Source: an uncultured delta proteobacterium
GTDB taxonomy: Bacteria > Myxococcota_A > Polyangia > Fen-1088
Direction: 5' to 3'
Length of the DNA stretch: 64,000 bases
NCBI GenBank assembly: GCA_963737265.1
Contig: CAVTRY010000011.1
Location: forward strand, 1,152,001 to 1,216,000
A model generated the notes under the pieces. That model ran no database searches. It was not told where the DNA came from and saw nothing but the letters and a program-made list of their open reading frames with translations. Below are positions 14,340-46,866 of this stretch, piece after piece. Position 1 is the first letter of the stretch. Each line of letters opens with the position of its first letter. The position numbers and the translations under genes are program-made.

Positions 14340-14499
14340 GCGCGCCCGTCGAACAAGCCGTTGCAGCGCTCGTAGGCAGTGCAAGTAAAAAGAACAGGGA
14401 GTGATTCGGGTCGTCTGGGCACACGAGATCCGTTCCGCGGTCAGGAAGATGCGGTGGAAAGGATCAGGTGCGCGAAGAAGATTTGAGCGGGCGAGAGAT

Positions 14500-14870
14500 C
14501 GGGAGGCAATCGGCCTGGTAATCGAAACGCTCCAGTAGGATGTCCGCGAGGGCCGGCATCGAGTCAGCTTGCAACGGAGATTGGGTCAGGTCGATGGATC
14601 CTCAGGGTGCCTCGAAACAGACAGCGCTCTTGCACAAGGCAGAGATGAGCTTCAACAGGAGGTCACCCGTCGGATATCTCACACGTTCAAGGAATTGGTT
14701 TGCTTTGGTTGTTTGCTCCTTTTCTGCAAGTGGGTCTGACCAAGATGGACAGGGTCAGATCAAAAATCCTCAGGGTGCCTCAAGACAGACGGCGCTCTTG
14801 CACATGGCAGAGATACGCTGCAACAGAAGGTCACCCTTCGGAAATCTAGAATGTTCAACATGGGTCGTCC
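14500..14870 (-). ncRNA. Candidate bridge/seek RNA region with duplicated target-binding loops
   Basis: Direct repeats 14583-14690 and 14752-14858, each forming stem/internal loop/stem with attC-like loop strands. Confidence 0.65.
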
Positions 14871-14884
14871 CCATACCAGCATGG

Positions 14885-16153
14885 CTACACCGTCACCTGC
14901 AGACGGCGGGTGTCGAAGAGCTTGCTGCTATCAAAGGTGCCACCGCGACCGACGTGGTACAGCCCCTTGGCCAGCTTGCGCATCAGCGCGACGGCAGCTC
15001 GCGAGGCTCGGCCGCCGTCTCGTTGCTTTTTGCGCTGGTACCAGGCGTTGGCGATGGGATCATCCTGAATCCAGCGGAAGATGGCGAGCCAGAGTAGCTG
15101 GCGTACGCGGGATGGACCACGCTTGGTGATCTTGATCTGACCGTGCATGGTACCGCTGCTTTTCTCCTTGAGGTTGAGGCCCATGGCTTTGAGGAAAGCG
15201 CGTGTACACGAGTACGATCGTGCATCACCGACCTCGGCGAAGATGGCGGCAGCGGTGGTGCGGCCGACGACGGGGGCAAGCGCGGCGGCGGGCGTGGTGG
15301 CGGCGAGTTTTTCGACTTTCGTCTTGGCCGTGCTGAAGGCCCGGTGGGCGTCATAGGCCTCTTCGGCGATTACCATCAAAGCGTCGCGTTCAAGCCCGAC
15401 CATCGGGACGCCGACGGAGGTGCTGGCCGAGGCGACAACGGCAGCAACGTCGTCGTCGGCAATCAGCCTGTGACTGATACCACGAAGGAGCTTCGTCGCC
15501 TTGTCCGGGGCAGCGGCGACATCGGCAGGACCGCCGATACGCGCGACCAGCGCCATAAGCGATGCCGAGGTCAAATCAAGCAGGCTGGGCAACTCGGGCC
15601 AGTGGCGAGCGAGCCAGCTTTCCAAGCGATGCACGAGCTGCAGGTAGCGCTCCTGGTGCAGATCCATGATGGCCAGTGCTGCCTTGAGCTGCCGACGTTC
15701 TGGGACTTCGTCAGGCAGGCGGGTGGAAAGGCCGTCGGCGTGCAGCCTGGCGATGATGGCGGCAGCCTTGGCGTCGTGAAGACTGGGCACGCCGTCGAAG
15801 ATTTCCTTCGCATCGTGGGTGCGCTTGCCGCTGACCATGAAGATCGGAAAGCGGTCCTGTTCGAGCTGGTGGCGAAGCACATCGCCGTAGGTTCCGGAAG
15901 GCTCCATGACGGCTTCGACGATGATGCCGGCGGTGCGGTAGCCGCGCAGGATGGAGAGCACCGTGGGGTTCTGCTCTGGGGCCTTCCAAGAGATGGTGTG
16001 CAGCACACGCCCGTCGGCGCCAGCGAACGCTGCAACCATGTCGACCTTGGCGACGTCGATGGCGAGGACCAGCTTGCCGCCCAGGTCGGCGGGCGAGATG
16101 CTTTGTGGTTGAAAATCATTGACGGGCATTCTGCGATAGATACGCTTCTTCAT
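14885..16153 (-). CDS. IS110-family recombinase/transposase
   Basis: AIDVAK, MEPSG, HDAKAA; C-terminal GLNLKEKSSG..ITKRGPSRVRQLLW; GAAGGA RBS. Confidence 0.92.
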   Translation of the reverse strand: MKKRIYRRMPVNDFQPQSISPADLGGKLVLAIDVAKVDMVAAFAGADGRVLHTISWKAPEQNPTVLSILRGYRTAGIIVEAVMEPSGTYGDVLRHQLEQDRFPIFMVSGKRTHDAKEIFDGVPSLHDAKAAAIIARLHADGLSTRLPDEVPERRQLKAALAIMDLHQERYLQLVHRLESWLARHWPELPSLLDLTSASLMALVARIGGPADVAAAPDKATKLLRGISHRLIADDDVAAVVASASTSVGVPMVGLERDALMVIAEEAYDAHRAFSTAKTKVEKLAATTPAAALAPVVGRTTAAAIFAEVGDARSYSCTRAFLKAMGLNLKEKSSGTMHGQIKITKRGPSRVRQLLWLAIFRWIQDDPIANAWYQRKKQRDGGRASRAAVALMRKLAKGLYHVGRGGTFDSSKLFDTRRLQVTV

Positions 16154-16308
16154 GGGGATGACATCCTTCGTCATGGTTTCGGACTTCGGCACTTTTGGGA
16201 CGTCCCCGTTTCCATTTGCAACTACCTTTAGCTGACTGACGCAGTCGCCGCAGGGGAATTGGGGTAACATCAAAGAACCGCTCGTGCGGCGCCCGCGCCG
16301 CTGAACGG

Positions 16309-18194
16309 GTGCGCCCAGCATGGGCGTCGTCTTGGGGGTGCAAGTCCCCCCGAAAGGAGACCATCCCAAACGAAGCGAACTGCAACTGCGAAAGGGCGAC
16401 CAATCGTGGGGAGGAAGCAGGGAGCGAAACCGCGGGCTGATGAACAAAAACCGGATAAGAGGCGGCGCCGAGCGGGGCGAGTGGGCCCGTTGCCACAAAG
16501 CCTCGATGGTCAAAGCTCAGGCTACGTAGATCCGGCGGTCGTGCGGGGAAGGACGACGTACTTACCTGGGGAGATCTCGCCTTGTGCCTGAAAGGGCGAC
16601 GGCGCGGACGCGACGGGGCGAGAAGTCAGCAGAGGTCGTAGTAGCGAAGTCGAAGCCGGGGCGGCGATATCACCGACGCCGGAAGTCTTTGGCGATGCGA
16701 AGGACTGAACGAGAAGGAGAGCGAAACGAACATGCGTCTCGGAAGCAAACGGCCTCAGATGACCAGGCAACTGGAGCTAACGTTTTCAAATAGGGGTGAA
16801 ACCCCGACGGGAAAACGAAGCGAGGAAGCGCCGACGGCGACGTGTGAAAACGAGCGCTCGGGAGCGAGCGGCCTGATGGAGAGGGTGTGCGAACGCCCGA
16901 ACCTTTTGGCCGCGCTGAAGCGAGTGAGAAGGAACAAGGGCAGTCCCGGCATCGACGGGATGACGGTGGATGAATTGCCGATACACCTGCGCGAATACTG
17001 GCCACGGCTGCGCGAGGAACTGCTCGCGGGGACGTACCAGCCCGCGCTTGTGAAGGAGCAACTCATACCGAAGGCCAGCGGAGGAATGCGCAAGCTTGGC
17101 ATTCCGACGGTGGTCGACCGATTCATCCAGCAGGCTGTATTGCAGGTTCTGCAACCGATGTTCGACCCGGACTTCTCAAAGCACAGCCACGGTTTCCGGC
17201 CTGGGCACCGTGCGCACGACGCCATCGTCGAGGCGCAGGGGTATATCCAGGGCGGACGCAAGTGGGTGGTAGACGTGGACTTGGAGCAATTCTTTGACCG
17301 CGTGAACCACGACGTGCTGATGGGAAGACTGGCGAAACGCATCGGCGACCGTCGTTTGCTGGGGCTCATCCGGCGTTACCTCGGGGCCGGCATTATGGCT
17401 GGCGGGGTGGCGACGGAGCGGTACGAGGGAACGCCACAAGGCGGCCCCTTGTCACCGCTGCTAGCCAACGTGCTGCTCGACGAAGTGGACAAGGAGCTGG
17501 AGAAACGCGGGCACGCATTCTGCCGGTACGCTGATGACTGCAACGTATACCTTCGGTCGCGGCGTGCGGGCGAGCGTGTGATGGGGCTGCTACGGCGGCT
17601 CTACGCGGGACTGCGACTTCAAGTCAATGAAACGAAAAGCGCGGTGGGCTTGGCGTGGAACCGGAAAATCCTGGGTTACACATTCTGGGTAAACCGGGAA
17701 GGAACGGTGAAGCGCGCGGTGGCAGACAAAGCCCTTGCCACGATGAAGGACAAAGTCCGGAACATCACGAGGCGGACGGGCGGGCAAAGCATTGGCCAGG
17801 TCTGCAAACGGCTGGGGGAATATCTGCGTGGTTGGAAGGAATACTTCCGGCTCGCGGACACGCCTCGGGTCTTTGGCAACTTGGACAAATGGATTCGCCG
17901 TCGCCTACGGGCTCTCCACTTGAAACACTGGGGACAACAATCGACCGTCTATCGGGAACTGCGGGCTCGGGGGATGTCCCATGACGCAGCAAGCGTAGTG
18001 GCCGTGAACTGTCGCCGCTGGTGGAAAAACTCGGCTAGTATGATGAACGTGGCATTTCCCATTCGCTACTTTGACCAGTTGGGGGTACCCCGGCTGGCCA
18101 CGTAACCTCAACTTCCCGAACCGCCCGGTGCGGACCCGCACGCCGGGTGGTGTGGCAGGGGTCCTTGACGATCTGTCGAGGCCCCTATGCCGAT
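16309..18194 (+). mobile_element. Group IIC intron inserted in attC
   Basis: 5' GTGCGCCCAGCATGGGCG; short DV GAACCGCCCGGTGCGGACCCGCACGCCGGGTGGTG (CGC triad); 3' CCTATGCCGAT. Confidence 0.95.
16732..18105 (+). CDS. ltrA: Group II intron reverse transcriptase/maturase, no endonuclease domain
   Basis: RKLGIPTVVDR, GTPQGGPLSPLL, RYADD, domain X ending YFDQLGVPRL. Confidence 0.95.
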   Translation: MRLGSKRPQMTRQLELTFSNRGETPTGKRSEEAPTATCENERSGASGLMERVCERPNLLAALKRVRRNKGSPGIDGMTVDELPIHLREYWPRLREELLAGTYQPALVKEQLIPKASGGMRKLGIPTVVDRFIQQAVLQVLQPMFDPDFSKHSHGFRPGHRAHDAIVEAQGYIQGGRKWVVDVDLEQFFDRVNHDVLMGRLAKRIGDRRLLGLIRRYLGAGIMAGGVATERYEGTPQGGPLSPLLANVLLDEVDKELEKRGHAFCRYADDCNVYLRSRRAGERVMGLLRRLYAGLRLQVNETKSAVGLAWNRKILGYTFWVNREGTVKRAVADKALATMKDKVRNITRRTGGQSIGQVCKRLGEYLRGWKEYFRLADTPRVFGNLDKWIRRRLRALHLKHWGQQSTVYRELRARGMSHDAASVVAVNCRRWWKNSASMMNVAFPIRYFDQLGVPRLAT

Positions 18195-18396
18195 CAAGGC
18201 GTTCGACAGACTGGGGAGTGGTATGGACCGCTGCCGCCTACGATCTCACCGTTGGGGGACCACTTGAGTAACCGGCATTGAGGGTAGGCTCGACCGGGAG
18301 TTCGTGATATAGGTCGGTTTCCTTGCTCGCGCAGGCCCTGTAAGCGAACAACAGGGCAAGCGTGTCGACTCAGCGAGGCTACAAAGGAGACCTCCG

Positions 18397-18771
18397 GTGA
18401 CAAAGCTCTTCATGGTCATGGCGCTGGTGATGACGATCGTGGCAGCCGGATCCGCCCTCGCCGGCGAAACGGTGCTGCTGAAGGACGGCTTCGACGCAGG
18501 TCAGCTCGCCCTCACCTTCACGGCCAAGGAGGAAGGAGCCAAGCTTGAGCTGAAAGTGAAGAACCAGACGAACGTAGCACTGATCGTCACCATCGAGTCT
18601 GGTACCACCACTTTTCATCTCGGCCAACAGACGATCGTCATCTCGACGAACGCGCCGAAGAAGCTGAATGTCGACGCTTCGGCGGAGTTGACCGTTCTGC
18701 TGGACCAGGGTGGTGGCGCACGTATGACCAAGGGATCGATGACGGTGAGCAAGAAGCCGCCCAAGAAGTAG
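18397..18771 (+). CDS. Cassette: secreted hypothetical protein
   Basis: AAGGAG RBS and signal peptide; cassette start GTTCGACAG matches end CTGTCGAAC. Confidence 0.75.
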   Translation: MTKLFMVMALVMTIVAAGSALAGETVLLKDGFDAGQLALTFTAKEEGAKLELKVKNQTNVALIVTIESGTTTFHLGQQTIVISTNAPKKLNVDASAELTVLLDQGGGARMTKGSMTVSKKPPKK

Positions 18772-18801
18772 GAGCGCAACCAACCGCGCCCCCGACGCGC
18801 T

Positions 18802-18905
18802 GTCGAACAAGCCGTTGCAGCTGACAATCCCGCCGCAGGGACATCGTGTAGAATAGAAGCGCCGACTCGGCGGCGGGCTTGCAGCTGAACGGCAAGGCGT
18901 TCGGC
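18802..18905 (+). other. attC (long family)
   Basis: GTCGAAC..GTTGCAGC..GCTGAAC..GTTCGGC; near-identical to 37788 and 43954. Confidence 0.93.
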
Positions 18906-18922
18906 AGACGTGAGGTGTACCC

Positions 18923-19537
18923 ATGCTGATGCAAAAGATGGTTCTTGGTCCTCGACTTGGCCCCGTGATGGCGGCCGCCTGCGAGTTCGAGTGGGCAATC
19001 CTCTTCCTCATCGACGCCCATCCTCAGGCGAAGAAACTCAGCACCGACTACCGCCACCGGATGGCCGCAAGCAACGGCTTCGCCAAGTTGAGCAAACTGC
19101 TCTCGATCCTGATGTCCAGCTGTGGAATCAGGAATCCGCAGGAGTCCGACTTTCTCGAGAGGTGCCTGCGTCTCAGGAATATGTTGGTTCATGGATCCTA
19201 CAGAAATGCGGCGCAGACGCTGAGTGAGTTGCCGCAGATGCGAGTCCTTGAGGAGAACGTGGTCTCTTTCGACCCCGCACGTGGCTTCGCGGTGCCGTCA
19301 TTCGAAACGGCACTCGGCGAAGCCATGATGTTCGTGAACGAACCCCGGCTAGGTGCTGCGATGATCGAAGCCTTCGATGCGGGATGCCTTCTCCTTCACC
19401 TTCGCATAGACCAGCACCATGCGAAGAGGCTTGGCACTTCGCCAACTATGACGGTCAAGGAACGCTCAAATTCTCAAAGCTCGGCCGATCCCGGGCCGAC
19501 GCACACACCAACTCTCCAAGGAGATTCCAATGATTAG
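18923..19537 (+). CDS. Cassette: hypothetical protein with RNxxxH (possible HEPN-like) motif
   Basis: GAGG RBS right after attC; LRNMLVHG. Confidence 0.6.
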   Translation: MLMQKMVLGPRLGPVMAAACEFEWAILFLIDAHPQAKKLSTDYRHRMAASNGFAKLSKLLSILMSSCGIRNPQESDFLERCLRLRNMLVHGSYRNAAQTLSELPQMRVLEENVVSFDPARGFAVPSFETALGEAMMFVNEPRLGAAMIEAFDAGCLLLHLRIDQHHAKRLGTSPTMTVKERSNSQSSADPGPTHTPTLQGDSND

Positions 19538-19733
19538 TCCGGTTCTTCTGGCCGTGATCCTCGGGCAGAGTGGTCAGCCACGCGATCTGACGGCGGAGAT
19601 GTACAGCCATGCCTGCAACACCGGTATGGCTGTGGCGCAGCGGGTACTGCCACAGGTCTCCGAGGAACAGCGGGCCGACTTTCTCCGTCGCGGATACGAC
19701 AGCTGTCGTGGAAGCCTATCGCGGATACAAAAG
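19530..19733 (+). pseudogene. Small exported protein truncated by ISL3
   Basis: AAGGAG RBS; reading frame runs into the ISL3 IR. Confidence 0.5.
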
Positions 19734-21145
19734 CGCCCATCACGCTTTCGGGTGAGCTTCCGTCGAGGGTCAGTGGCAGCATGAGAAATACAGGATCTGC
19801 ATGAGGTTGTCGGGGTTGCGGTAGCCGTGGCCACGCTGGCTGATGCCGCGAACACGTGAATTGTTGCCTTCGAGGGCTGCGTTGGAAAGACCGTGCTTGG
19901 CCCAGGCAATAACGCCCGACCAATGGCGCTTAATCATGTTCCAGAATCGCTGCCCCATACGACGTCGAACTGCTCCTTGAGCAGGTACGCTACCTGGAGA
20001 CGTCGGTTGAGGCGGAATAGCTCGTCAAGCTCGCGACGGCGACGCCAGTGAAGACGACGACGCTTCTTGAGCAGGAGGAACTTCTTGCCTCGGATGGCCT
20101 CGCGATACAGGCCACCCTTGCGCCAAAATTCCGCCTTGCGGACCTGGTCGACGGCGTCGGTGAGGTGGTGCTCGATGTGGAATCGGTCGAAGACGAGGTC
20201 AGCCTGTGGGGCATGTTCGCAGATGGCGTTGATGTAGCCTTGGGCCATGTCCAGCGTGACTGCCACCAGCCGATGCGACCGGCGCGGTCCCAGCTTCACG
20301 AAAAACTGCTTGAGTGTTTCCTCCTGCTTGCCCTCGCCGATCCAAACCACGTGTCCGGCCTCGTGGTCCCAGACGATGGTCAGATACTTGTTCTGGCCTC
20401 GGCCGTAGCTGACCTCGTCGACGCCGATGATGCGAAGCTTGCGATGGAAGCGGCGCTCGACCGCATCCTCGACCCAGTGGGTGATGAGGCGCATGACGGT
20501 AGTCCAGTGCAGCCCGAGTTGGCGGCACACGCCGGCAATGGAAGTCGTGCGGGCACGCCGCAGGACCTCCGCCTCGAACATGTGAGTCATGCGCGAGCCG
20601 GTGCGCGCCCACGGGACCTGTTCGACCCGGATCCCACAGCGGCGACAGCGCACGCGCCGCAGAGGCGCGATGACGACCGTGCGGATGCCCCAACCGTCGA
20701 GATGACGCCAGGCCCGGGCGCAATTCTTGATATCCAGCGCGCAGCGCTTGGTCTCTCCACAGCCGGAGCACACAGCCGACTGCCTGGTCGGATACAGGTG
20801 TACATGCCAGGAGCCATCGGTACCGCTGTAGCTGTCGAAACTGACACGCCAGCCGTTTGCAATGGCCAGCTGCAATGCCAAAATACCAGGGACGGACGTT
20901 CGTTGGGAGTTCCTCGTGATTTGCATAAACCCGAAGGATCACCGACGGACGTCCACTTTTCATTTCGCGCACCGTCGCGCGCGGCGACGAGATCCTCGTC
21001 GTCGCATAGCAGCACCTGAGCCGCCAGCGAGGAGGCCGTCACCCGTAGGGCCGGAGCGAAGCGGAGGAGGCGCGAAGCGCCTTGACGGCCCCCGGAGCGG
21101 CGGCTACGCCGTTGCCTTCGCAATCACCCGAACGCGCGATGAACC
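19734..21145 (-). mobile_element. ISL3-family IS, no flanking DR
   Basis: IRs GGTTCATCGCGCGTTCGGGTGA / CGCCCATCACGCTTTCGGGTGA. Confidence 0.8.
19770..20926 (-). pseudogene. ISL3 transposase with frameshift/deletion near 19950
   Basis: Zn finger CSGCG..CRRCG, IGVDE, DMAQGY, FDRFH; SNAALEGNN..GYRN in a second frame. Confidence 0.88.
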
Positions 21146-22062
21146 TGATTTTCTTGTCGCGCGTGCGGAAGACGACCTCGTTGTCATCGACGTGCAGCAG
21201 CCGCTGGTTGGAGATGGCGACCCGGTGGGTGTACAGGCCAAGGTATTGAAAGAGAGCATCGGGGTTTTGGAAGGGTGCCTTCGCATAGACCACCCAGTTC
21301 TTTTCGTAGAGAGCATTCTTGAGGTGGGCGAAGGCGGCGGGCTCGAACGAGAGCGGCGACGGCTTTGGGAGGGCGCAGACCGGGTTTGAGTTTGCCGTCG
21401 GCAACCAGGCGATTCAGGCCATCGAGGAATTTCCCGCGAAACAGTTTGCCGAGGACTTTGACCGGAAGCAGATACTTTTCAGGCGAATCGACCCACGCGC
21501 CGTCGGCGCCGAGGCCGCCGCCGGTGACGATGCAATGAAGGTGCGGGTGAAAGATGAGATTGCGTCCCCACGTATGGACGACGCCGGTGACGCCGACCAG
21601 TGCACCGATCCGTTGCGCGTCGTGTGCGAGTGCAAGGATGGTTTCGCTGGCCGCTTTGAACAGCAGGTCGAGAAGCAAGACCTTGTATTCGCGAACCAGC
21701 GGGCGCAATTCGGCGGGCAGGGTGAAGACGACGTGAAAGTGGCGCACGGGCAGTGCGCGCTCCATGCGCGCGGCGACCCAGCGGGCTTGTCGCAAAGCCT
21801 GGCACTTGGGGCAGTGCCGATTGCGACACGAATTGTAGACCACGCGCGCGTCGCCGCAGTTTGCGCACACGTCCTTATGGCCGCCGAGCGCGCCCGTGCG
21901 GCAGACGGAGATGTCCCGCAACGCCCGGCGCTCCATGGCGCCGAGCGCGTGAGTTTGCTGAAAGGCCTGCCCGTGGTCGCGGAATATTTTTCCGATATCA
22001 CGGGCAGACGAGAGCCCCCGCCCGGCCGCGCAGGCGGGAGACTCGTCGTGCGCCGACTTCAT
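21146..22062 (-). pseudogene. IS91-family (HUH/Y2) transposase, frameshifted and truncated by ISL3
   Basis: YNSCRNRHCPKCQ, FHVVFTLP, HPHLHCIVTGGG, YLGLYTHRVAISNQR. Confidence 0.92.
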
Positions 22063-22065
22063 CGG

Positions 22066-22308
22066 TCAGCGCGGTGGTTGCGGGTGTTTTACTTTTCGTC
22101 GTCGCAGCGTCGGGCATGCACTCGTCGCGCGGGCAAGGTCGACTTTGCCGTCGCCCAGGGCATCGAGCGGACTGGTCACGCTAGCCAAGTGCTGCTTCGA
22201 CACTTGCAGATAGCGTGTCGTGTTTCGGATCGACTGATGCCCCAGCAGGACCTGGATGGTGCGCAGGTCTTCGCCCGATTCGAGAAGATGCGTGGCGAAG
22301 GAATGCCT
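22066..22308 (-). pseudogene. C-terminal part of the tyrosine recombinase interrupted by the RIT
   Basis: [28 protein letters not shown] continues the 31691..32370 fragment. Confidence 0.9.
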
Positions 22309-23005
22309 GTTATGCCGAGCTCGGCATGACAGGCATTATGCCGAGTGCCCGGTTATGCCGAGTGAGTCTTTCGATCTCGCTCGATCATCGGAGATTCCCT
22401 CGGCAGATGGGCTTGCAGACTCGGCATAACCAGGGCGTCGTCGTCTCTTTCTGGCTACTGGGCCGAAGGAGGACACATGCCCCGGATGCACGACGACTTT
22501 GTGGAATGGCAACGACTGCGTAGCGGCCCCTTGGGTCCGCACCTGGACACGTTTGCGGCGACGCTCACCGAGAAGGGATATTCGCCCGCCACCGTGGCGC
22601 TGAAGGTGCGCGTGGCAGCGAAATTCGGACAGTGGCTTGGACGGCGAGGACTCGCTATCGGTGAGGTCGACGAGCAAGTCGTAGTCCGCTTCGTCCAGGG
22701 CCATCCTTGCTCGCCCCGGCGTGGGGACGCGGCGACACTGCGTGTTCTACTTGAACAGGTCCGTTCTGCCGGCCTGGCCCCGCCAGCCCCAACTAAGGTC
22801 GATGACACTGCGATCGGGCGGATCGTGAGCGAATTCGGCCGGTATCTGTTGGTAGACCGTGGCCTGTCCGTCTCGACTCGGATCAGCTACCTGTGCTGAG
22901 CGACAATTACATCTCCCCAAAGACGACAGCTACGTCGCCCCGCTTTGAGGCGCGACGGTGACCGTGAGGTAGACCTCCAAGCCCGCAAGCGGGCAGGAGG
23001 CACCT

Positions 23006-27148: not shown

Positions 27149-27265
27149 CCATCAGACTTTTCCCGTCGCTGGGACTTCGCCCACCCGCGAAGATCCCTGC
27201 CAGGCGTGGCCGGAATGAAGCATGGCTTTACCTGCATCGCACACCGCGATTGCAGAAGGGACACC

Positions 27266-37759: not shown

Positions 37760-37787
37760 CCAGAGGGCTCCACGGGCCGCGCGAGCC

Positions 37788-37891
37788 GCCGAACAAGCCG
37801 TTGCAGCTGTCAATCCCGCCGCCGGGACATCGTGTAGAATCGAGGCGCCGACTCGGCGGCGGGCTTGCAGCTGAACGGCAAGGCGTTCGGC
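37788..37891 (+). other. attC (long family)
   Basis: Near-identical to 18802 and 43954. Confidence 0.93.
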
Positions 37892-38102
37892 GGACGACGG
37901 ACGAGTCTCGGCGAAGAAGATGCGACGAAGCATTCTATTGTGCTGAACCGGGGGCGAGGGCGCCATCTCGCACTCCATGACGGTGGTGTCACGGTTGCGT
38001 CTTGGACGGCTACGCAACCCTTGAGGTTTGCCATGGCGCCTGCTTTGCGTAGGGCGCTCGAGAACACTGGAGACCAGAGACACGTTACGAAAGGCTTCAA
38101 CG

Positions 38103-38999
38103 ATGAGGAACACTGAAGTGCCGAGCCCTGTTGCCAATGATGGAAGTATCATCCGCATTACCAAGGGAAGATCGACTGGCTGTGGCCGTAGGCTGCACCA
38201 TGAGCCATCCACGGGCTCGCTTTGGGCAATCGGTTGCCTGCTTGTCGCGGGGTGGGCTTGCAGCAAGTCCGGAGGATCGTCCCAACGAGACGCGACGATC
38301 GATGCCGTGATGCCCTCAGGCGGAACAGCGGGTTCCACGATTCCGGGCGAGGTCGGAGGTACCACGCCCTCTGGGGGAGCCGCGGGCGCCAGCATGGGAG
38401 GGAACTCCGACTCGGACGCGCGTGCGGGTGGTTCAGGCGGCATCGGTGGCCTGCCTGGCGGCGGGGGCGCTCAAGGCACAGGTGGAATCGCCCCAACGGG
38501 CGGTACGATAGCGACTGGAGGAATTCAGGCGACAGGAGGAATCGCTGCAAGCGGCGGCACGTTGAATGCTGGCGGAACGCAGTCCACTGGGGGTATCGGT
38601 TCCACAGGCGGAATTCTGGGCACTGGAGGAATCACTACTCACGATGCAGCCGCGGACGTCAGCCAACTGATCAACGAAGCCGGCAATCCAATCTGTGGAG
38701 ACACGCTCTGTGGAACAGCCCAGTACTGTTGCAACAGCCCTTGCCAGCAATGCATGCCGAGCCCTGACACGTGCTCATTGCTCGTCTGTGGAACCGCAGA
38801 CGGCGGCACCTTCGATTCCTACCCCTCCGACTGCACTGCTGGGTACTCCGGAGACTCCACCTACTGCGGGACGTCCGCCACAACACCCCATTCCATCCAC
38901 TTCTACCAGTGTTCGACCAGCGTGTTGGCTCTGCCCTGTCGGAAGTTGTCGGTCGGCACAACTGGCGGCGCCTTTTGCTGCCCGGGAGCGACGTACTGA
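38103..38999 (+). CDS. Cassette: putative lipoprotein with GGxxxT repeats and a Cys-rich C-terminus
   Basis: LLVAGWAC lipobox-like segment, TGGxxx repeats, many Cys; start codon uncertain. Confidence 0.7.
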   Translation: MRNTEVPSPVANDGSIIRITKGRSTGCGRRLHHEPSTGSLWAIGCLLVAGWACSKSGGSSQRDATIDAVMPSGGTAGSTIPGEVGGTTPSGGAAGASMGGNSDSDARAGGSGGIGGLPGGGGAQGTGGIAPTGGTIATGGIQATGGIAASGGTLNAGGTQSTGGIGSTGGILGTGGITTHDAAADVSQLINEAGNPICGDTLCGTAQYCCNSPCQQCMPSPDTCSLLVCGTADGGTFDSYPSDCTAGYSGDSTYCGTSATTPHSIHFYQCSTSVLALPCRKLSVGTTGGAFCCPGATY

Positions 39000-39144
39000 A
39001 GCACGGGACAAGATCCGAATGGAATCGATCACTGGAAAGCAGCTCACTTTGACCTGCGCTCTGACGCCGTCGAACAAGCCGTTGCAGACTGATGGTCGGC
39101 CGCGGACGGCCGCTCGCAGCTTAGGCGCCGTCAAGAATTAACAT

Positions 39145-40564
39145 TTACAGCTTACGTGCTCGCCTGGGATGGATTGTGTAGTTCCATTCACCGTGGAACG
39201 GCAACCGGGTGATACTGAGTTCCGCCAATTCCTCGTCAGTGATCCGTCGGCCGACTGGGTACTTGCGCCGATCGAGACGACACTGGACTGCGAGTCCCTT
39301 TGCTGTGGTCGTTCCTGCAATCAGGCCCACGATTGTCTCGTAGTCACGTAACGGCTCACCCCGCCAGTTCGACGAGATGAATGAAAAGAGCCGGTGCTCG
39401 ACCTTGTTCCATTTGCTCGTTCCTGGCGGAAAGTGGCACACCTTGATCGATAGACCGGTCTGATCGGAAAGTCGCTGCAGTTCGACCTTCCACAAGCGCA
39501 GCCTGTAGCCGTTGCTGCCGCCAGAGTCAGCCGTGACCAGCAGCTGGGTGGACTGAGGATACAAGTGCCTTCCTTCGTGCTGCCACCATCCGCGTATCGA
39601 CGCTACCGCGAACGCCGCCGTGTCGTGGTCGGTTCCGACATTCACGAATCCCGTGTTGCGTGCCATGTCGTAGATGCCATATGGGTACGCGCGGGGCACT
39701 GACGGATCCGGGAAGTCGTGGCCGTTCACCACGTCGGCAGTCCCGTTGAGTCGCCACTGCTGTCCGGCGTTTCGATAGTTTCCGACGAGTTCTTTCTTCT
39801 TGGTGTCCACCGAAATCACAGGGCACATCTCCGCCATCGTACGTCGCACCTCTCGATTGATGTGCCGAAACTGGGCATCGCGATCCGGATGATCCTCCCA
39901 GGGCCATCGCATCATCCTACATCGACGCAGGATCCATCAGAGTCTCGGCCATTTCTGGAAGGTTTTCCCCTGGGGTCGGTGCGCGCGCCGGTGTGCAGGC
40001 AGGTTCGGCAGCGCGCACGGGCGCGGAGACCGGCATAACTATCGGCATCTCCGCAAGATCACTTACAATTTAGATGCGTTGGCCCTGATGATCCTCCCCC
40101 TCTTCGGTCTTCCTGTTCCCCTGCAAGCTATAGTCCATGTCTCGTAGAAGTTGGGCAACCTTCTCGTGGCTTATTGGGTGGCGGCGCGCAGTCAACTCCA
40201 GAGCGAGGGCCCGAGTGCTCTTGCATGTCCACCGAAGCGGCGATTCCGGATCGCCGAGGGTAAGCGGCTCCACCAGCGACTCAAGCAGCCGCGGCAGCTC
40301 GGGATCGTATGTCACCAGTTTCGGGCGTCCGGCTCCCTTCCGTCGAACTCGCTCTCCATGCAGAGGTTTCTGTCGCAGTTCCTTCACGCCCTTCGTAATG
40401 GTCACCCGTGACAGGCCGCATGCGCGACTCACGAGACTCACGCCGCCATAGCCAATATTGGTGGCCTCCGCCGCCGCAAGCATACGCCGAGCACGCTCAC
40501 TCAAGTGTGGCCACACCAGACGGAACTTCCCTTTGAGACTTTGTGTCGGGTCCAATCGGCTCAA
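39145..40564 (-). pseudogene. ISAzo13 transposase interrupted by a MITE
   Basis: GDPESPLRWT..EEGEDH | PDRDAQF..ISVDTKKKE..ADSGGSN..SKWNKVEHR..GEWNY. Confidence 0.92.
39899..40087. mobile_element. 189-bp MITE / internally deleted IS
   Basis: IR CAGGGCCAWCGCATC; 10-bp DR ATGATCCTCC. Confidence 0.9.
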
Positions 40565-41063
40565 ATGGTACTGCGGCAGACGCTCATGTAAAGTTTATTT
40601 CTTGACGGCACCTTAACGGCAATCGTTCGACAATCGGGACCGCGACTTGGGGCGTTTGGAGTTCTGGCGGCGAAGGCCATTGCTGCTCGGTCGCAATTCG
40701 GCCTTCGCCCGACAACGATCTTCTCGGTTGGGGCGGTGGCCTCCAGGATTCTGGGCCGACTGTGAAGGGCATTGATCGCCGGAATTGCCCCGAAGGAGCT
40801 GCGACTCCGCCGCTGCAATCGGGGCTGTGCAGGCCACACGTTGGCGCCGACCGGCGTAGATTCGGCGCCGACATCACCACTCGGGCGACTGATCTCACGG
40901 TCGTGCTTCCGCGGGAACGCAGTGGCCGGCGTGCTGACGCCGAATATGGGCGACCATCGCAGGTTTTCGACAAGCGCGTTCTGCGTCCCCGCGGAAATCA
41001 TCTCGGCTTGTGGATGCGTCTCTGCCGCGATGGCCGGCCGAAGTTTGAAGGGGCGGTCCCGTT

Positions 41064-41226
41064 GTCGAACAAGCCGATGACGACGAAGGCCGTCAGCTCT
41101 CGGTCGGAGTCCAACTAGCCGGGGCCGCGCGGCTCAACAGATCAACGGTGGGCGCCGCGCGGCCCCGGCAGTGCTACTATCGAGCCGCCGGGACGGCCCT
41201 CGCCGCTTATCGGCAGATCGTTGGAC
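41064..41226 (+). other. Long atypical attC (163 bp)
   Basis: GTCGAACAAGCCGATGA..CCGGGGCCGCGCGGC/GCCGCGCGGCCCCGG..TTATCGGCAGATCGTTGGAC. Confidence 0.8.
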
Positions 41227-41592
41227 GGACCGATCATCGGTGATTGAGAAATGAACCTCAGCACTTGCCAAAATCCCATTCACTGCTCCTCTGCGCTCTA
41301 CTTTCAGGATGCGGCACGGGCGGCGCATCCAAGAGCAGTGCCGCTCGCAGCTTCTCGGTGGACCCCAGCAGCAGATATTGGCGCGCTGGCGCGCCAATTG
41401 GGTCTCTGTAGACGGCGGACGACTTCCGTCGTGATCTGACGGTCGACAGCGTTACCGCTTCTTGCGTTGGGCCGAACGGAATCCCGGGAGGGCTCGTGAT
41501 CGTGGTCGAACGGGTGCGTCCCGCGCCTCGAGTCAGCGGTGATGTGCAGCTCGCAGCAGCAGCGCCTTGGACGGATGCGTGTCACTTTGGGC

Positions 41593-41647
41593 TTGCACCT
41601 CCGCTACTAAGCGTTACTATGTACCTGTAGTCAGTGACGTTAAGTAG
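41593..41647 (+). promoter_or_regulatory. Promoter and inverted-repeat operator of the padR unit
   Basis: TTGCAC-16-TACTAT; CTACTAAGCGTTACT..AGTGACGTTAAGTAG. Confidence 0.6.
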
Positions 41648-41665
41648 ATCATCAAGGAGCTGTTC

Positions 41666-41995
41666 GTGGGCAAGCAAATAACGGAAATGCTTAAGGGAAT
41701 CCTAGAGGGCATCGTCCTCGCGATCCTGTCTGTGCGGCCCGCGTACGGCTACGAGATCACGGCGCGGCTTCGAGCGCAGGGCTTCTCCGACATCGCCGAG
41801 GGCACCGTCTACGCCCTGCTCGTCAGGATGGAGCAGCGCGACCTCGTCGACGTGGAGAAGGTCCTGTCCGAGAAGGGACCGCCGCGGAAGGTGTACTCGC
41901 TCAACGCTCGGGGGCGGGAATACCTCGAAGAGTTCTGGAGAACCTGGAGCTTCCTCGCTGAACGCCTGGAACAGCTCCATGAAGGAGGCAGATGA
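41666..41995 (+). CDS. PadR-family regulator
   Basis: LKGILE..AYGYEI..EGTVYALL..GPPRKVYSL. Confidence 0.93.
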   Translation: MGKQITEMLKGILEGIVLAILSVRPAYGYEITARLRAQGFSDIAEGTVYALLVRMEQRDLVDVEKVLSEKGPPRKVYSLNARGREYLEEFWRTWSFLAERLEQLHEGGR

Positions 41996-41996
41996 C

Positions 41997-42392
41997 ATGT
42001 TCATTTCAAAGTTCATAGCGAAGGTGATTGGCGAGAAGGGGCAATGGCGGCAGTACAAAGCGCGCGCAAGACAACTTCCCGCGAGCTATCGCACGGCAGT
42101 TGAGGCGCTGGAGCGGTACCTGATGTACCTCGGGGGCGGGGATGACGGGACTGCGATTTTCGCGGACCTCGTCGACCTGTTCGAACAGAGCGCGGCGAAC
42201 CGGACCCCGATCCGCCAGATCGTCGGGGAAGACCCCGTCGAGTTCATCGAGACGTTTGTCCGAAACTACCCGAACGGTCAGTGGATCACCAGGGAGCGAG
42301 AACGGCTGACCAACGCCATCCAGCGCGCCGCCGAAGAAGAAGCGAGAGAAGCGAGCTCAAATCCTCTGGAAAAGAAAGGCGGGGAAAAATGA
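41997..42392 (+). CDS. DUF1048 protein
   Basis: EKGQWRQYKAR..LPASYR..DLVDLFEQSAA..IVGEDPVEF. Confidence 0.85.
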   Translation: MFISKFIAKVIGEKGQWRQYKARARQLPASYRTAVEALERYLMYLGGGDDGTAIFADLVDLFEQSAANRTPIRQIVGEDPVEFIETFVRNYPNGQWITRERERLTNAIQRAAEEEAREASSNPLEKKGGEK

Positions 42393-43633
42393 TTCGGACG
42401 ACGAGCGAAACACTCTTGCGGGGACACGTCGAGGACGGCTGGGGGAAGGTGGCCGATGTCTTCCGGGCGAACTTCGAAGGGAGCCCCGGAGAGGTCGGCG
42501 CGGCGTGCTGCGTCTACGTGGACGGCCGCCCCGTCGTCGACTTGTGGGGCGGCCTCGCCGACCGAGACACGAACCGGCCGTGGGACAGGGACACCATCGT
42601 TGCCGTCGCATCCACGACCAAAGGCGCCGCCGCGATCTGCGCGCATCTGCTGGTCCAGCGAGGCAAGCTGGATCTGGACGAACCGGTGGTCAGGTACTGG
42701 CCGGAGTTCGGCGCTGCCGGCAAGGAGCAGATTCCGGTGCGCTGGCTGCTCTCACACCAGGCCGGCCTGCCGATCGTCGACGGACCGCTGACCTTCGAGG
42801 AGGCCTGCGCTTGGCATCCGGTAATCCGGGCGCTCGAGGCGCAGAAGCCGTTGTGGCAGCCGGGCACCGAGCACGTCTACCACAGCATGACCTTCGGGTT
42901 CCTGGTCGGAGAGCTGGTACGGCGGATCACCGGCAAGTCGCTCGGCACGTTCTTCGCCGAGGAGATCGCCGCTCCGCTTGGGCTGAGCGCCTGGATCGGG
43001 CTGCCCGAGGAGCAAGAGGGACGGGTGGCCGGGGTCGCGTACGCCGCTCCGTTCACGATGGAGGAGATGACCGCCGGGATGATCGAGACCACTGGCCTCG
43101 ATAGGGCCACGGTCATCGCCTGGATGAACGCCGTGTGGAGTCCGGACTCCGTGCAAGCCCGCGCCGGCGTGCTCGGCGGCGCTCTCGATCCCGCCAGCGG
43201 TTACATGAACACGCGGGCCTGGCGCGCTGCCGAGTTCCCGGCCGCGAACATGTGGGCGGACGCTCGATCGCTGGCCCGCATGTATGCGGCCACGGTGAGC
43301 GAGGTCGACGGCGTGCGGCTGCTGGAACCAGCCACGGTCGAGAGAATGATCGTCGTCCAGACCGACAAGACACGGATGAACGGCCTGCCGCCGGGACTCG
43401 ATATTCCGGCCAACCGCTCCTTCTACATGTCGCTCGGGTTCTGGCGGGCATGCCCACCGATGCCCTGGGCCGGGCCGCGCTCGTTCGGCCACCCCGGCTC
43501 CGGCGGATCGGTCGCCTTTGCCGAGCCCGATGCCGGTGTCGGCTTCGGCTACGTGACGAATCTGTGGTCATTCAGGATTGGCGAACCGCGCGCGTCGAAC
43601 CTGGCCGCGGCGGTCGTGGCCTGCCTCGGGTGA
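42389..43633 (+). CDS. Serine hydrolase, beta-lactamase/esterase family
   Basis: SxxK (STTK), LLSHQAGL, YHS, FGHPGSGG. Confidence 0.92.
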   Translation: MIRTTSETLLRGHVEDGWGKVADVFRANFEGSPGEVGAACCVYVDGRPVVDLWGGLADRDTNRPWDRDTIVAVASTTKGAAAICAHLLVQRGKLDLDEPVVRYWPEFGAAGKEQIPVRWLLSHQAGLPIVDGPLTFEEACAWHPVIRALEAQKPLWQPGTEHVYHSMTFGFLVGELVRRITGKSLGTFFAEEIAAPLGLSAWIGLPEEQEGRVAGVAYAAPFTMEEMTAGMIETTGLDRATVIAWMNAVWSPDSVQARAGVLGGALDPASGYMNTRAWRAAEFPAANMWADARSLARMYAATVSEVDGVRLLEPATVERMIVVQTDKTRMNGLPPGLDIPANRSFYMSLGFWRACPPMPWAGPRSFGHPGSGGSVAFAEPDAGVGFGYVTNLWSFRIGEPRASNLAAAVVACLG

Positions 43634-43953
43634 TGTATCACCTCCTCGCGTATGACGGGTCGTCTGAGTTGCTGAAGCTGGTCCACGTCCGGATGCTGGC
43701 CGAGGCAGGCGTCCCGCTGGCCGAGATCGGAGCCCTGCTCAACCGTCATTTTTCGACGGATTCACATTGCGGTCTACACGTCCCCCAGCGATTTGCTCCG
43801 GAGGTGGAGTTTGTGTGGAGCATGACAGGCAACATTGTGTCGGAGGTCCACTCGTGGCTCGGCGGCGGACCGTTCAATGGGGCGGGCCTAGCTAGCGGTT
43901 ACGACGTACTGGATCCGACCGTGCGGATGCAACCTCACGATCTCTTCGCGGCC

Positions 43954-44058
43954 GTCCAACAAGCCGTTGCAGACTGACAATCCCGCCGCCGGGACATCGT
44001 GTAGAATCGAGGCGCCGACTCGGCGGCGGGCTTGCATCTGAACGGCAAGGCGTTCGGC
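43954..44058 (+). other. attC (long family)
   Basis: GTCCAAC..GTTCGGC; R'' complementary to the cassette start GTTGGACGG. Confidence 0.93.
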
Positions 44059-44108
44059 GGACGTGTCATCGCGGGGACCATACGTCGGCGATGTGCTATT
44101 CTTCCACC

Positions 44109-44309
44109 GTGCTAGCAACGAAGCAAAGGGTGAAGGATCTTCTCGATCGGCTGCCTGATGATTGCAGCCTTGAGGATGTCGTCTACCATCTGTACGTCAT
44201 TCAGAAAGTCGAGGCCGGGCTTGCTGACGTGGATGCCGGCAGGCTGATCCCCCACGATGTTGTCGCTGCGGAGCTTCGTCGTAAGTGGCTGGCGGGAAGC
44301 GAGCAGTAG
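44109..44309 (+). CDS. Putative antitoxin
   Basis: LLDRLPDDCSLEDVVYHLYV..GLADVDAGRLIPH upstream of a RelE/ParE gene; TGcTATTCT before the GTG. Confidence 0.8.
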   Translation: MLATKQRVKDLLDRLPDDCSLEDVVYHLYVIQKVEAGLADVDAGRLIPHDVVAAELRRKWLAGSEQ

Positions 44310-44596
44310 TTTGGACTCCCGCCGCGCGGGACTGTCTCGACGAGGCATTGCAGTTCATCGCGGCCGATTCACCAGCCGCAGCTGCAAAGGTTCTGGAAGT
44401 CGTGCTTGCCGCTGCGGAATCATTGTCGGTCTTCTCCGAACGCGGTCGCATGGTCCCGGAGATTGGGAGCCGGTCCGTCCGCGAGATCTTCGTCTATCGG
44501 TTTCGGGTTATGTATCAGGTCTCGTCGCGGGAGGTGTGTATTCTCGCGGTCTTGCACGGAGCGATGGACTTCGATCGATGGCTTCGACACACGTAG
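44285..44596 (+). CDS. RelE/ParE-family toxin
   Basis: VVWTPAARDCL..GRMVPE..VREIF..FRVMY..ILAVLHG. Confidence 0.9.
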   Translation: MAGGKRAVVWTPAARDCLDEALQFIAADSPAAAAKVLEVVLAAAESLSVFSERGRMVPEIGSRSVREIFVYRFRVMYQVSSREVCILAVLHGAMDFDRWLRHT

Positions 44597-44600
44597 CGCC

Positions 44601-44666
44601 GCCGAACAAGCCGTTGCAGTCGACGGTCGCCTTCGGCGCCCACCGCTTAACGGCAAAGCATTGGGC
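44601..44666 (+). other. attC (short) with mutated core ATTGGGC
   Basis: GCCGAAC..GTTGCAG..GCTTAAC..ATTGGGC. Confidence 0.85.
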
Positions 44667-44705
44667 GGACCTACTCTCTCGGCGGGCTGCTAGTCTAGCG
44701 GCTTG

Positions 44706-44831
44706 GTTCAACATGCCGTTGCAGCTCTCGTAGGCAGTGCAAGTAAAAAGAACAGGGAGTGATTCGGGTCGTCTGGGCACAGATGGTCGGCCGCGGACGG
44801 CCGCTCGCAGCTTAACGGCAAAGCGTTAGGC
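44706..44831 (+). other. attC carrying a ~56-bp IS110 end remnant (44726-44781), preceded by an IS91-like end remnant
   Basis: TAGCGGCTTGGTTCAAC..GTTGCAGC|TCTCGTAGGCAGTGCAAG..GGGCAC matches 14368 onward; right arm ends GTTAGGC. Confidence 0.85.
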
Positions 44832-44849
44832 GTATTCCACGGAGTTCAA

Positions 44850-45182
44850 ATGGTCAGCTGCTATTTGCGATATGTCATTGATCCTCACAAGCTTCCCGAA
44901 TTTGAAGCGTACGCGAAGATGTGGATCCCGTTAGTCGAGCGGTTTGGTGGTCAACACCACGGCTACTTTCTTCCACACGAGGGCCCCAACAACATCGCAA
45001 TAGCACTGTTCAGCTTCCCGAGCTTGGCTGCCTACGAGGACTACAGGCGTAAGGCAGCGACTGATCCAGAGTGCCAGGCAGCCATGTCCTACTACAGGGA
45101 GACACGCTGCTTTCTGAGCTTTGAACGCAGTTTCATGCGCCCGGTGCTCGGGGAAGGAAACGCCCAACAAGTAGGCGTTTGA
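44850..45182 (+). CDS. Cassette: NIPSNAP-family protein
   Basis: CYLRYVIDP..FEAYAK..GGQHHGYFLPHEG..FPSLAAYEDYR. Confidence 0.88.
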   Translation: MVSCYLRYVIDPHKLPEFEAYAKMWIPLVERFGGQHHGYFLPHEGPNNIAIALFSFPSLAAYEDYRRKAATDPECQAAMSYYRETRCFLSFERSFMRPVLGEGNAQQVGV

Positions 45183-45762
45183 TCCGGCCGCAGCCATAGA
45201 TATTCCCCTGACTGGCTGAATTCGCGCGCGGCCGGATTGAACGTCTGGTTGAGCCAAGCCGCGGGTTCGGGAGGAGAAGTGACTCTTCTGCCCATGGGCA
45301 AAGCAGGTCGACTTTTCGAGCAGCGGGGCGATCGGGACGATGCTTTTGCTGGGGTCGGAGGTTGTCGACGGTCGCGAGTGAACCGAGAAAACGAGAATCG
45401 TGCGTGCTCGAAGGCGCGGGAAACCCGTCGCCCACGACGAACGCACAGAGGTTTCCATGGCCGTCGAAATGAAGACGACAGCCTGGTTGCAGGCGACAGC
45501 TCCAAGCGAGAGGACATTCATGACGAGTCGAGCGGCGGGGCGCGCCCAATCTTGCTATGCCAGCGCGCGAATTCGACTGCCTCGGACTTCCAAGGCTTGC
45601 CTCATGACCTCAACCATCCGAACCGCCGGATGCGGACCCGCATGTCCGGTGGTGTGGGAGGGGCGCAGCGGGCAATTCCGCTGCCCCCTATCCCGATCAA
45701 GGCCTTGCGTCCGACGATCGGCCGCGGACGGCCGCTCGCGGGTGAACGCCAAGGCGTTCGGC
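45162..45762 (+). other. attC interrupted by unknown DNA and an intron remnant
   Basis: GCCCAACAAG..; rest of the site (CAAGGCCTTGC..GGTGAAC..GTTCGGC) at 45698-45762. Confidence 0.7.
45571..45697 (+). mobile_element. 3' remnant of a second group IIC intron
   Basis: FDCLGLPRLAS*, DV GAACCGCCGGATGCGGACCCGCATGTCCGGTGGTG, DVI ending CCTATCCCGAT. Confidence 0.9.
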
Positions 45763-45784
45763 GGACATCCGAAGCCACGCGAAT

Positions 45785-45829
45785 CCGGTACAGGCTAGAC
45801 CGGTACAGGCTAGACCGGTACAGGCTAGA
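45785..45829 (+). repeat. 15-bp tandem repeat x3
   Basis: CCGGTACAGGCTAGA repeated exactly three times. Confidence 0.95.
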
Positions 45830-45844
45830 CCTGCCGGTGCCAAG

Positions 45845-46866
45845 CCCGACGTGCTACTATCCCCTTGGCCAGTTTGCGCATGAGCGCGACGGCCGCGCGC
45901 GGGGCGCGGCCACCGTCCCGCTGCCTTTTGCGCTGGTACCAGGCGTTGGCGATGGGGTCGGCCTGAATCCAGCGAAAGACGGCGAGCCACAGAAGCTGGC
46001 GCACGCGAGATGGGCCGCGCTTGGTGATCTTGATTTGGCCCTGCACGGTGCCGCTGCTCTTCTCCTTGAGGTTGAGGCCCATCGCCTTGAGGAAGGCGCG
46101 GGTGCCAGAGAACGACCTTGCATCGCCGACCTCGGCGAAGATCGCGGCGGCGGTGGTGTGGCCGACGACGGGCGCGAGAGCGGCGGCGGGCGTGGTGGCG
46201 GCGAGTTGGTCGACCTTAGTTTTGGCCGCGGCGAAGGCGCGATGTGCTCGATACCCCGTCGGCGATGGCCATCAAAGCGTCGCGTTCAAGGCCGACTAGC
46301 GGGACGCCGACGGATGTCCTGGCCGATGCGATGACGGCGGCGATCTTGTCGTCGGCAATGAGCCTGCGGCTGATACCAAGCAGAAGCTTGGTGGCCTGGT
46401 CCGGGGCAGCGGCGACAGCGGCTGGCCCGCCAATGCGCGCGAGCAGCGCCATGAGCGACGACGAGGTCAACTCGATCAGCGTGGGCAACTCAGGCCAGTG
46501 GCGAGCGAGCCAGCTTTCCAGGCGATGCACGAGCCGCAGATAGCGCTCCTGGTGCAGGTCCAAAATGGCGAGCGCTGCGTGGAGCTGGCGGCGTTCTGGA
46601 ACCTCGTCGGGCAGGCGGGTGGACAGGCCATCGGCGTGCAGCCTGGCGATGATGGCGGCAGCCTTGGCGTCGTGAAGACTGGGTACGCCGTCGAAGATTT
46701 CCTTGGCATCGTGGGTGCGCTTGCCGCTGACCATGAACACGGGGAATGCATACTCTTCGAGCTGGTGGCGAAGCACATCGCCGTAGGTGCCGGAAGGCTC
46801 CATCACGGTTTCGACGGTGATGCCAGCGGCGCGGAACCTGCGCCTTTTTCATCAACTACCTTTAGC
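45845..46866 (-). pseudogene. Degenerate second IS110 copy (deletions, frameshift)
   Basis: Closely similar to 14885..16153; same end CAACTACCTTTAGC abutting an attC right half. Confidence 0.9.

Follow-up and report, generated by a model that had tools for sequence, protein, structure and literature searches.

Insertion sequences (ISs) of the IS1111-attC group insert near the 5′ end of attC, the recombination site of integron gene cassettes, and lie antisense to the cassettes, as described in parts of PMC3001079 and PMC11616780. According to the sections of PMC11187229 that deal with these elements, their seekRNAs originate from the long non-coding region after the transposase gene and match both strands of attC; the same source describes IS4321 and IS5075 as targeting the inverted repeats of Tn21-type transposons. 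Bridge RNAs were predicted in the right end of IS1111 elements (PMC11208160, in part). Targeting of attC by IS1111-family elements with guide RNAs is an already published principle. Here we analyzed a stretch of 64,000 nucleotides (nt), hereafter the window, from an uncultured delta proteobacterium (assembly GCA_963737265.1, contig CAVTRY010000011.1, positions 1,152,001–1,216,000). Its cassette array contains an intact IS of the IS110 superfamily, a short remnant of the same IS and a decayed copy of a related one. These traces very probably represent independent insertions, each made by an element of IS1111 architecture that a guide RNA directed to the 5′ arm of attC and that always runs opposite to the cassettes.

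The present family shares with the IS1111-attC group (ISPa21, ISPst6, ISKpn4 and ISPa25) the insertion near the attC 5′ end, the antisense orientation, a transposase gene followed by a long non-coding region, and the absence of a target duplication; the subterminal inverted repeats of that group have an imperfect candidate counterpart here. The element would work like that group, but its transposase and its exact position in attC do not agree with membership of the clade. New are the very distant lineage with a long transposase, the different cut point in attC, the tandem target loops and a large natural series of covarying guides.

Site specificity, independence and orientation of the insertions

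The source genome (25 contigs, 6.55 Mb) contains four full copies of the IS (100, 100, 99 and 98% identical), each with an intact open reading frame (ORF) of 429 amino acids (aa), as well as one copy split by another IS and a series of remnants. Alignment of the flanks of all copies revealed 12 junctions of the IS end that faces the L'' box of attC (end A). Eleven of these adjoin GTTG(C/A)AGC in attC context, nine in the form GTTGCAGC and two in the form GTTGAAGC; the twelfth belongs to an 82%-diverged remnant with a deviant flank, located inside another array. No copy or trace was found at an unrelated site in this genome-wide survey of copies and remnants. The first-pass annotation, made from the letters of the window, had proposed such an alignment and expected GTTG(C/A)AGC(A/T)GAC sites, GTTGAAGC ones among them if a second loop works; GTTGAAGC sites were recovered at two remnants of the source genome and at many relatives. 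The specificity for this site is real, and the explanation by a guide RNA fits it.

In the 6.55-Mb genome (both strands) GTTGCAGC occurs 310 times and GTTGAAGC 236 times, while a 12-mer composed of GTTGCAGC plus attC context occurs 19 times. Early searches with attC motifs were too loose (779 matches; 167 for the 3′ half motif, mostly noise), and the attC lists used here come from a two-part motif search and a context listing read by eye. According to the context listing, nine GTTGCAGC attCs are occupied or scarred and eight are empty; among the GTTGAAGC attCs two are scarred and four empty, and none of the five attCs with GTTGCAG(A/T) is occupied.

The three traces of the window might in principle descend from one ancestral insertion by segmental or cassette duplication. 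The nearly identical inner end point of two remnants of about 55 nt (window 44726–44781 and C7:296180–296233) would agree with such an origin. However, 11 end-A flanks of 400 nt, starting 20 nt away from the IS, gave no blastn match with one another, and the flanks of the other side gave only short attC-type matches of 25–82 nt. The attCs that carry the remnants differ in L'', spacer and distal half, and the decayed copy belongs to a different family member. As the end-A flanks are unrelated, we regard the insertions as independent, site-specific events and duplication as scarcely credible.

The IS could also have spread between attCs without transposition, by homologous recombination or gene conversion involving the repeated attC halves. 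This would account for the 16–20 nt upstream of the right end, on the L'' side, which are nearly identical in every copy of the genome. The flanks of the other side, in contrast, diverge directly after TGAC in all four full copies, and the central attC parts differ, although conversion tracts reaching L'-R' would have homogenised them. Moreover, the same junction recurs in unrelated genomes and in metagenomes, and we consider this route very unlikely. Transposition into a preferred attC position is the reading retained below.

All nine attCs of the window array are oriented in plus, as are the five cassette ORFs with Pfam support (NIPSNAP, ParE, PIN, a beta-lactamase-fold protein and an N6 methylase), and the transposase is encoded in minus. 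The orientation opposite to the cassettes, claimed from the letters alone, was thereby borne out. Since L'' is always faced by the same end of the IS, all traces run antisense to their cassettes.

The remnant and the decayed copy

The first-pass annotation had proposed three traces of one IS at a single attC position, all joined to the L'' box. For the remnant of 56 nt this proved correct. It is 100% identical to the IS end over positions 2–56, is directly preceded by GTTGCAGC and directly followed by the distal attC half. IS1111-attC elements, too, reportedly leave degenerate footprints in arrays, a finding ascribed to Tetu and Holmes (2008).

The decayed copy required more correction. It terminates with ...CCTTTAGCTGAA at 46870 (not at 46866), and the distal attC half follows. 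It lacks its right end and all of the non-coding DNA, as well as about 250 nt close to the gene start; what remains of the gene carries frameshifts and one stop codon. Since the right end and the non-coding region have been lost, no L'' box adjoins this copy, and solely the same attC position can be deduced for it; joining to L'' applies to the full copy and the remnant. As a different family member, the decayed copy would be an independent witness to that attC position. It is 85.8% identical to the full copy over 1000 nt and 85.2% identical to relatives in another genome. Between the decayed and the full copy the ratio of non-synonymous to synonymous substitution rates (dN/dS) is 0.16, with dS of 0.46 (329 codons), and therefore most of the divergence arose under selection in a separate lineage. 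Judged by this divergence, the decayed copy is a different member of the family and not an aged copy of the same IS, so the identity claimed for all three traces holds for the remnant only.

Two right-end remnants of similar length were found in different attCs of the genome: that of the window (56 nt, GTTGCAGC) and one of 54 nt at C7:296180–296233 (GTTGAAGC). Both are followed by GATGG of attC, and we offer no explanation for their nearly identical inner end points. Shorter scars, of 8 and 30 nt, are located at C6:119071, C11:2913 and C7:295600. Three tandem copies of a 15-nt unit, CCGGTACAGGCTAGA, occupy 45785–45829, flanked by the 3′ half of an attC and by the decayed copy at its truncated end.

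Boundaries and coding capacity of the intact IS

The start of the intact IS at 14368 agreed with the first-pass annotation, while its other end lies at 16236, four bases beyond the earlier 16232 (Table 1). All four full copies finish with ...CCTTTAGC-TGAC-TGAC and diverge only beyond. Empty attCs of the source genome read GTTGCAGC followed by -TGAC, -TGTC, -TGAT or -AGAC, and among relatives from other genomes the four bases outside the constant GTCAGCT vary (GTCA, GACA, ATCA); therefore the inner TGAC belongs to the IS. In the full copy of the window the left-end tip GTCAGCT copies the target letters that flank the insertion point. A contig from another sample joins ...CCGTTGCAGCG straight to window position 16238, as expected of an empty relative of the occupied attC. 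At the outermost base of the right end the copies vary, with C or A in the source genome and G in one case elsewhere. As a candidate for the subterminal inverted repeats of 7–17 bp that characterise the IS1111 group, an imperfect repeat, GTAG(0–3 nt)TGCAA, was recognized by eye, at a distance of 11 nt from the left tip and of 4 nt from the right one.

The layout is of the IS1111 type, with 520 nt of non-coding DNA after the stop codon and 62 nt before the start codon. The transposase matches the C-terminal profile PF02371 (Transposase_20) with 54.3 bits against a cut-off of 21.3. Its translation contains GLNLKEKSSG, which matches the S/T-G motif of IS110-superfamily transposases described in part of PMC11187229.

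Two other copies deserve mention. The full copy at C13:374894–376762 differs from that of the window by a C-to-A change in the guide of loop 1 (GTTGAAGC instead of GTTGCAGC), yet it is inserted at a GTTGCAGC site; further changes are clustered in the distal part of its non-coding region. In the copy at C17:109224–112275 the 3′ end of the transposase gene is split by another element, which measures 1,368 bp, is bounded by terminal inverted repeats and contains an ORF of 390 aa.

Table 1. Coordinates of the IS, its traces, the predicted RNA loops and adjoining features in the window
Feature	Position	Strand	Remarks
Occupied attC, 5′ part	14348–14367	plus	R''-like GTCGAAC, spacer, L'' box GTTGCAGC (14360–14367)
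Intact IS	14368–16236	minus	1,869 bp; inserted at GTTGCAGC^TGAC without target duplication
Predicted donor-binding loop	14503–14603	minus	Outer stems and inner hairpin
Predicted target-binding loop 2	14605–14668	minus	5′ guide GUUGAAGC (14649–14656), 3′ guide (14616–14624); 82% like loop 1
Predicted target-binding loop 1	14773–14836	minus	Outer stem, 5′ guide GUUGCAGC (14817–14824), inner hairpin, 3′ guide CCGUCUGUC (14784–14792)
Transposase gene	14885–16174	minus	429 aa plus stop; ATG at 16174, stop codon 14885–14887
Short left end of the IS	16175–16236	minus	Terminal GTCAGCT, reverse complement of 16230–16236
Same attC, continuation	16237–16308	plus	Extends to L' GCTGAAC plus GG
Group II intron	16309–18194	plus	Shares the attC of the IS; flanked by GCTGAACGG and CAAGGCGTTCGAC
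Right-end remnant of the same IS	44726–44781	minus	56 nt, in a second attC; L'' at 44718–44725, attC resumes at 44782
Truncated copy of a related IS	45830–46870	minus	Distal attC half (46871–46917) abuts left end AGCTGAA

A predicted guide RNA downstream of the transposase gene

The 520 nt that follow the stop codon fit the layout of a bridge/seek-type RNA, predicted to comprise one, two or three copies of a target loop, depending on the element, and a donor loop. Each target-loop module consists of an outer stem (GGGUG-A-CCUY / RAGG-CACCC), a 5′ octamer strand, an inner hairpin and a 3′ strand, CCGUCNGUC. Single-sequence folding produced the outer stem in 18 of 20 modules. In the alignment analyzed with RNAalifold, 31 pairs were distinguished, 10 of them with compensatory changes, and 95.4% of cells pair, compared with 36–48% for slid partners. 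One helix proposed by this program (columns 152–155/162–165) shows no compensatory change; it was rejected as a stem and read as a guide. In four divergent modules the inner hairpin was shifted by one column in the MAFFT alignment, and a covariance model was used instead. In the resulting alignment 98.7% of cells pair (slid partners, 39–53%), 10 of 15 pairs show compensatory changes and none of 500 shuffles reached this level, but such an alignment is fitted to the model and is thus biased towards the structure. The target-loop model detected 113 modules in 82 sources, and within the 64-kb window only the two expected ones; it gave no match in the ISPa21 locus.

In the donor region compensatory changes affect five of seven pairs of the outer stems and three of seven pairs of the inner hairpin. 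The 5′ strand of the donor loop contains AGCUGAC (14563–14569), complementary to the IS left-end tip GTCAGCT, while the 3′ strand, CCUACUGGAGCG (14528–14539), has the same sense as the IS right end CCTACGAGC plus G; its CCUAC..GAGCG reads like the right-end tip extended by one base. Among relatives, the right ends CAAGT, CAAGA and CGAGA are accompanied, as read by eye, by the donor 3′ strands UAAGUG, UAAGAG and GGAGAG, respectively. In the predicted RNA the match to the top strand precedes, in the 5′ to 3′ direction, that to the bottom strand, as reported for IS1111-type seekRNAs.

In three loci (L073, L074 and L100) a target-loop module is situated upstream of the transposase match, and therefore a second IS copy appears to be present in a neighbouring attC.

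Covariation of guides and insertion sites among relatives

At least 1,356 protein relatives, mostly of 421–467 aa, were found in metagenome-derived collections. About 100 related loci were kept, 20 from species-representative genomes and 80 from metagenomes. Nearly all of the 20 genome loci are labelled Myxococcota-type, and one Tepidisphaeraceae; in 15 of them the right end abuts an attC-like 16-mer.

The guides of these elements covary with the sequences flanking them. At 41 unique right junctions the best guide of the same element matches on average 6.27 of the 8 site letters, whereas shuffled guide sets match 5.63 ± 0.11; 13 junctions are exact matches and 27 match in at least seven of eight letters. 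At 45 unique left junctions the corresponding values are 4.87 of 6 and 4.15 ± 0.10. None of 5,000 shuffles was as high for either guide, although these values are no strict probabilities, as guide sets are inherited and the attC repertoires of the hosts may track the IS lineage. The test retained 8 of 41 rows with a misplaced junction (L015, L021, L025, L031, L036, L067, L082 and L089), and deduplication by identical 20-nt flanks dropped some independent events. Together with the conserved two-loop fold and its compensatory changes, this match upholds the guide reading put forward in the first-pass annotation.

Elements with a single target loop allow a letter-by-letter comparison. At letter 5, where guides have C or A, guide and site agree in 13 of 15 such elements, the exceptions (L025 and L089) being misplaced rows, and the letter before the cut equals the 3′-guide letter in 17 of 21. 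Several elements appear with changed guides at correspondingly changed sites: L024 with guide AATGAACC at AATGAACC, L022 with ATTGCAGC at ATTGCAGC, a further relative with GATGAAGC at GATGAAGC, and L110, a 45%-identical relative, with CCTCCCTC at CCTCCCCC. The three letters of the 3′ guide beyond the cut track the IS left end and not the target: GUC accompanies GTCAGCT in 67 modules, and GUG accompanies GTGAGCT in two (L072 and L075).

Three of the loci with misplaced junctions carry extra pieces between the right end and L'', namely 12 nt (L021), a GAGC repeat (L031) and a GTACGAGC repeat (L036), which suggests imprecise events.

The first-pass annotation had foreseen GTTGAAGC sites in case the second target loop works. 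The sites exist, but they do not prove that this loop is used: the C13 copy carries GTTGAAGC in loop 1 too, and therefore the remnant found at a GTTGAAGC site with 100% identity (C7:296233) is no proof of a working loop 2. In other genomes and metagenomes, elements whose loop 1 is of the C type and whose loop 2 is of the A type are found mostly at C-type sites; two, L097 and L041, are at A-type sites, and this is the only fairly clean sign, a hint, of loop 2 use. Only tentatively, and with some doubt, do we suggest that all of the one to three tandem loops are functional, providing alternative GTTGCAGC- or GTTGAAGC-type addresses, and that attC targeting, directed to the opposite edge of L'', was acquired independently of the IS1111-attC group.

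Proposed mechanism of insertion

In the proposed mechanism the element encodes a DEDD-type transposase and, downstream of its gene, a putative bridge/seek-type RNA. The 5′ guide of the target loop is identical to the L'' octamer GTTG(C/A)AGC and so would pair with the bottom strand of attC. The 3′ guide (CCGUCNG plus UC), which has bottom-strand sense beyond the cut, would pair with the top strand and would continue, in a handshake-like manner, into the letters with which the IS left end begins. The donor loop would address the joined IS ends likewise. If a circular IS recombined with attC, the IS would come to lie between GTTGCAGC and TGAC without any duplication, which would split the attC and thereby immobilise the cassette. 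The sequences themselves show the insertion sites with their independence and orientation, the covarying RNA fold, and the covariation of guides with flanks; we infer that the RNA is made and used, that the circular intermediate forms and that strands are exchanged in the manner described.

Several observations weigh against this model. A search of the genome and of all loci gave neither a circle junction nor a tandem IS, though assemblies would rarely hold one. The N-terminal profile PF01548 reaches 26.9 bits, below its cut-off of 29, even though 154 of its 155 positions are spanned, and the NCBIfam IS110 model NF033542 reaches 112 bits, below its cut-off of 140. All four full copies are located at ...GTCA|, while both of their 3′ guides read GUCU; letter 7 of the guide often differs from the site letter; the C13 copy has GTTGAAGC in both loops and is nevertheless found at a GTTGCAGC site; and the L068 site is unlike both of its guides at letter 5. 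The reservation concerning the permutation values belongs here as well. Contigs from RNA libraries (four runs) cover 14369–14667, but the libraries may hold DNA, so they provide no direct proof of the RNA. Contigs of three studies stop at 14667, within the first bases of loop 2, and reach 14554 or 14488, which would fit, as a weak hint, an RNA composed of loop 2 and the donor loop; being contigs, these data give no depth, strand or ends, and the lack of cover at 14702–14768 in three of the four runs carries no weight.

Alternatively, the transposase or a host factor might itself recognise attC, by its sequence or by its folded hairpin, and the RNA-like region would then have another role, such as end recognition or regulation. 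attC sites are structured, several unrelated elements target them, such as the group II intron in the same attC, and the guide matches described above are imperfect at two positions. Against direct recognition, the guide letters covary with the flanks on both sides of the cut across lineages, including those with non-canonical sites (L024, L110 and L070–L077), and the predicted architecture equals that of bridge and seek RNAs proven by experiment, as presented in parts of PMC11187229 and PMC11208158. We therefore regard recognition without a guide as improbable and keep to insertion steered by the RNA.

On this basis, the family would constitute a second, very distant lineage of RNA-guided ISs specialised on attC, one that splits attCs, freezes cassettes in the large chromosomal arrays of soil bacteria and leaves recognisable scars. 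It would also offer a ready-made natural series of retargeted guides for work on bridge recombinases, including handshake-like letters that follow the left end. If all tandem loops work, the RNA would be a natural multi-guide bridge RNA with several target addresses on one molecule.

Comparison with described elements

The IS1111-attC group was represented in our comparison by a single copy, the element located after the smr cassette of pME-1a and called ISPa21 in PMC6739498. ISPa21 has the same orientation and geometry as the present element, with the right end towards R''. Its transposase, however, has 347 aa (429 aa here) and shows no significant BLASTP similarity (E 0.24), and it reaches 298 bits with NF033542, compared with 112 bits here. 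The transposases of the IS1111 group range from 330 to 350 aa, and those of the present family (429 aa; relatives of 421–467 aa) lie outside this range. ISPa21 is inserted at AATTC^...^TTCAAGCC, the 5′ edge of L'', while the present family uses the 3′ edge, about 8 bp further, as far as the one copy of ISPa21 allows the comparison. The non-coding region of ISPa21 measures about 270 nt, in contrast to about 520 nt with one to three tandem target loops here. Unlike the IS1111-attC group, the present family has its hosts among Myxococcota-type genomes derived from metagenomes. When 72,556 plasmid records were searched with the transposase by tblastn, no close relative appeared among the 63 matches, all weak and partial; IS4321/IS5075 are present in at least 5,000 of these records.

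IS621 and the IS110 group share with the predicted RNA the two internal loops with 5′ and 3′ guides to opposite strands around the cut, and the guide letters beyond the cut that match the partner DNA resemble the handshake guides of IS621 (both features as given in part of PMC11208158). In IS621, however, the RNA precedes the gene, whereas here it follows the gene, a CT core is absent and the target loops are in tandem. The order of the top- and bottom-strand matches is here that reported for IS1111-type elements. The sole sequence similarity to these recombinases is a weak C-terminal match (E about 2e-3).

IS4321 and IS5075 resemble the present element in their IS1111 architecture and in site- and orientation-specific insertion into a repeated structured site, according to the portion of PMC11187229 devoted to them. 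Only a stretch of 70 aa with 37% identity is shared with IS4321, which has a different target and reaches 338 bits with NF033542. Our narrow literature searches yielded no published tandem target loops, which leaves their absence unproven; the word "tandem" has no occurrence in PMC11208160.

Other elements of the cassette array

The group II intron that shares the attC of the intact IS was identified by a match to Rfam RF02001 (16390–16561) and a reverse-transcriptase ORF (16732–18105) with a YADD motif. The same intron start follows another attC at C13:213437, and an intron remnant is present in the window at 45621–45697. Published introns of group IIC-attC lie antisense to the cassettes (PMC3001079, in part), whereas the present one is in sense orientation. 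Like the IS, these introns are mobile elements specialised on attC, but they are retroelements and use another mechanism.

Just upstream of the first attC, at about 13150–13440 on the cassette strand (plus), we found part of a gene resembling the C-terminal portion of an integron integrase (HLHESVIQRAV...), interrupted by an in-frame stop codon. Its N-terminal part is seemingly missing, and the fragment lies next to a topoisomerase gene (10389–12635, minus).

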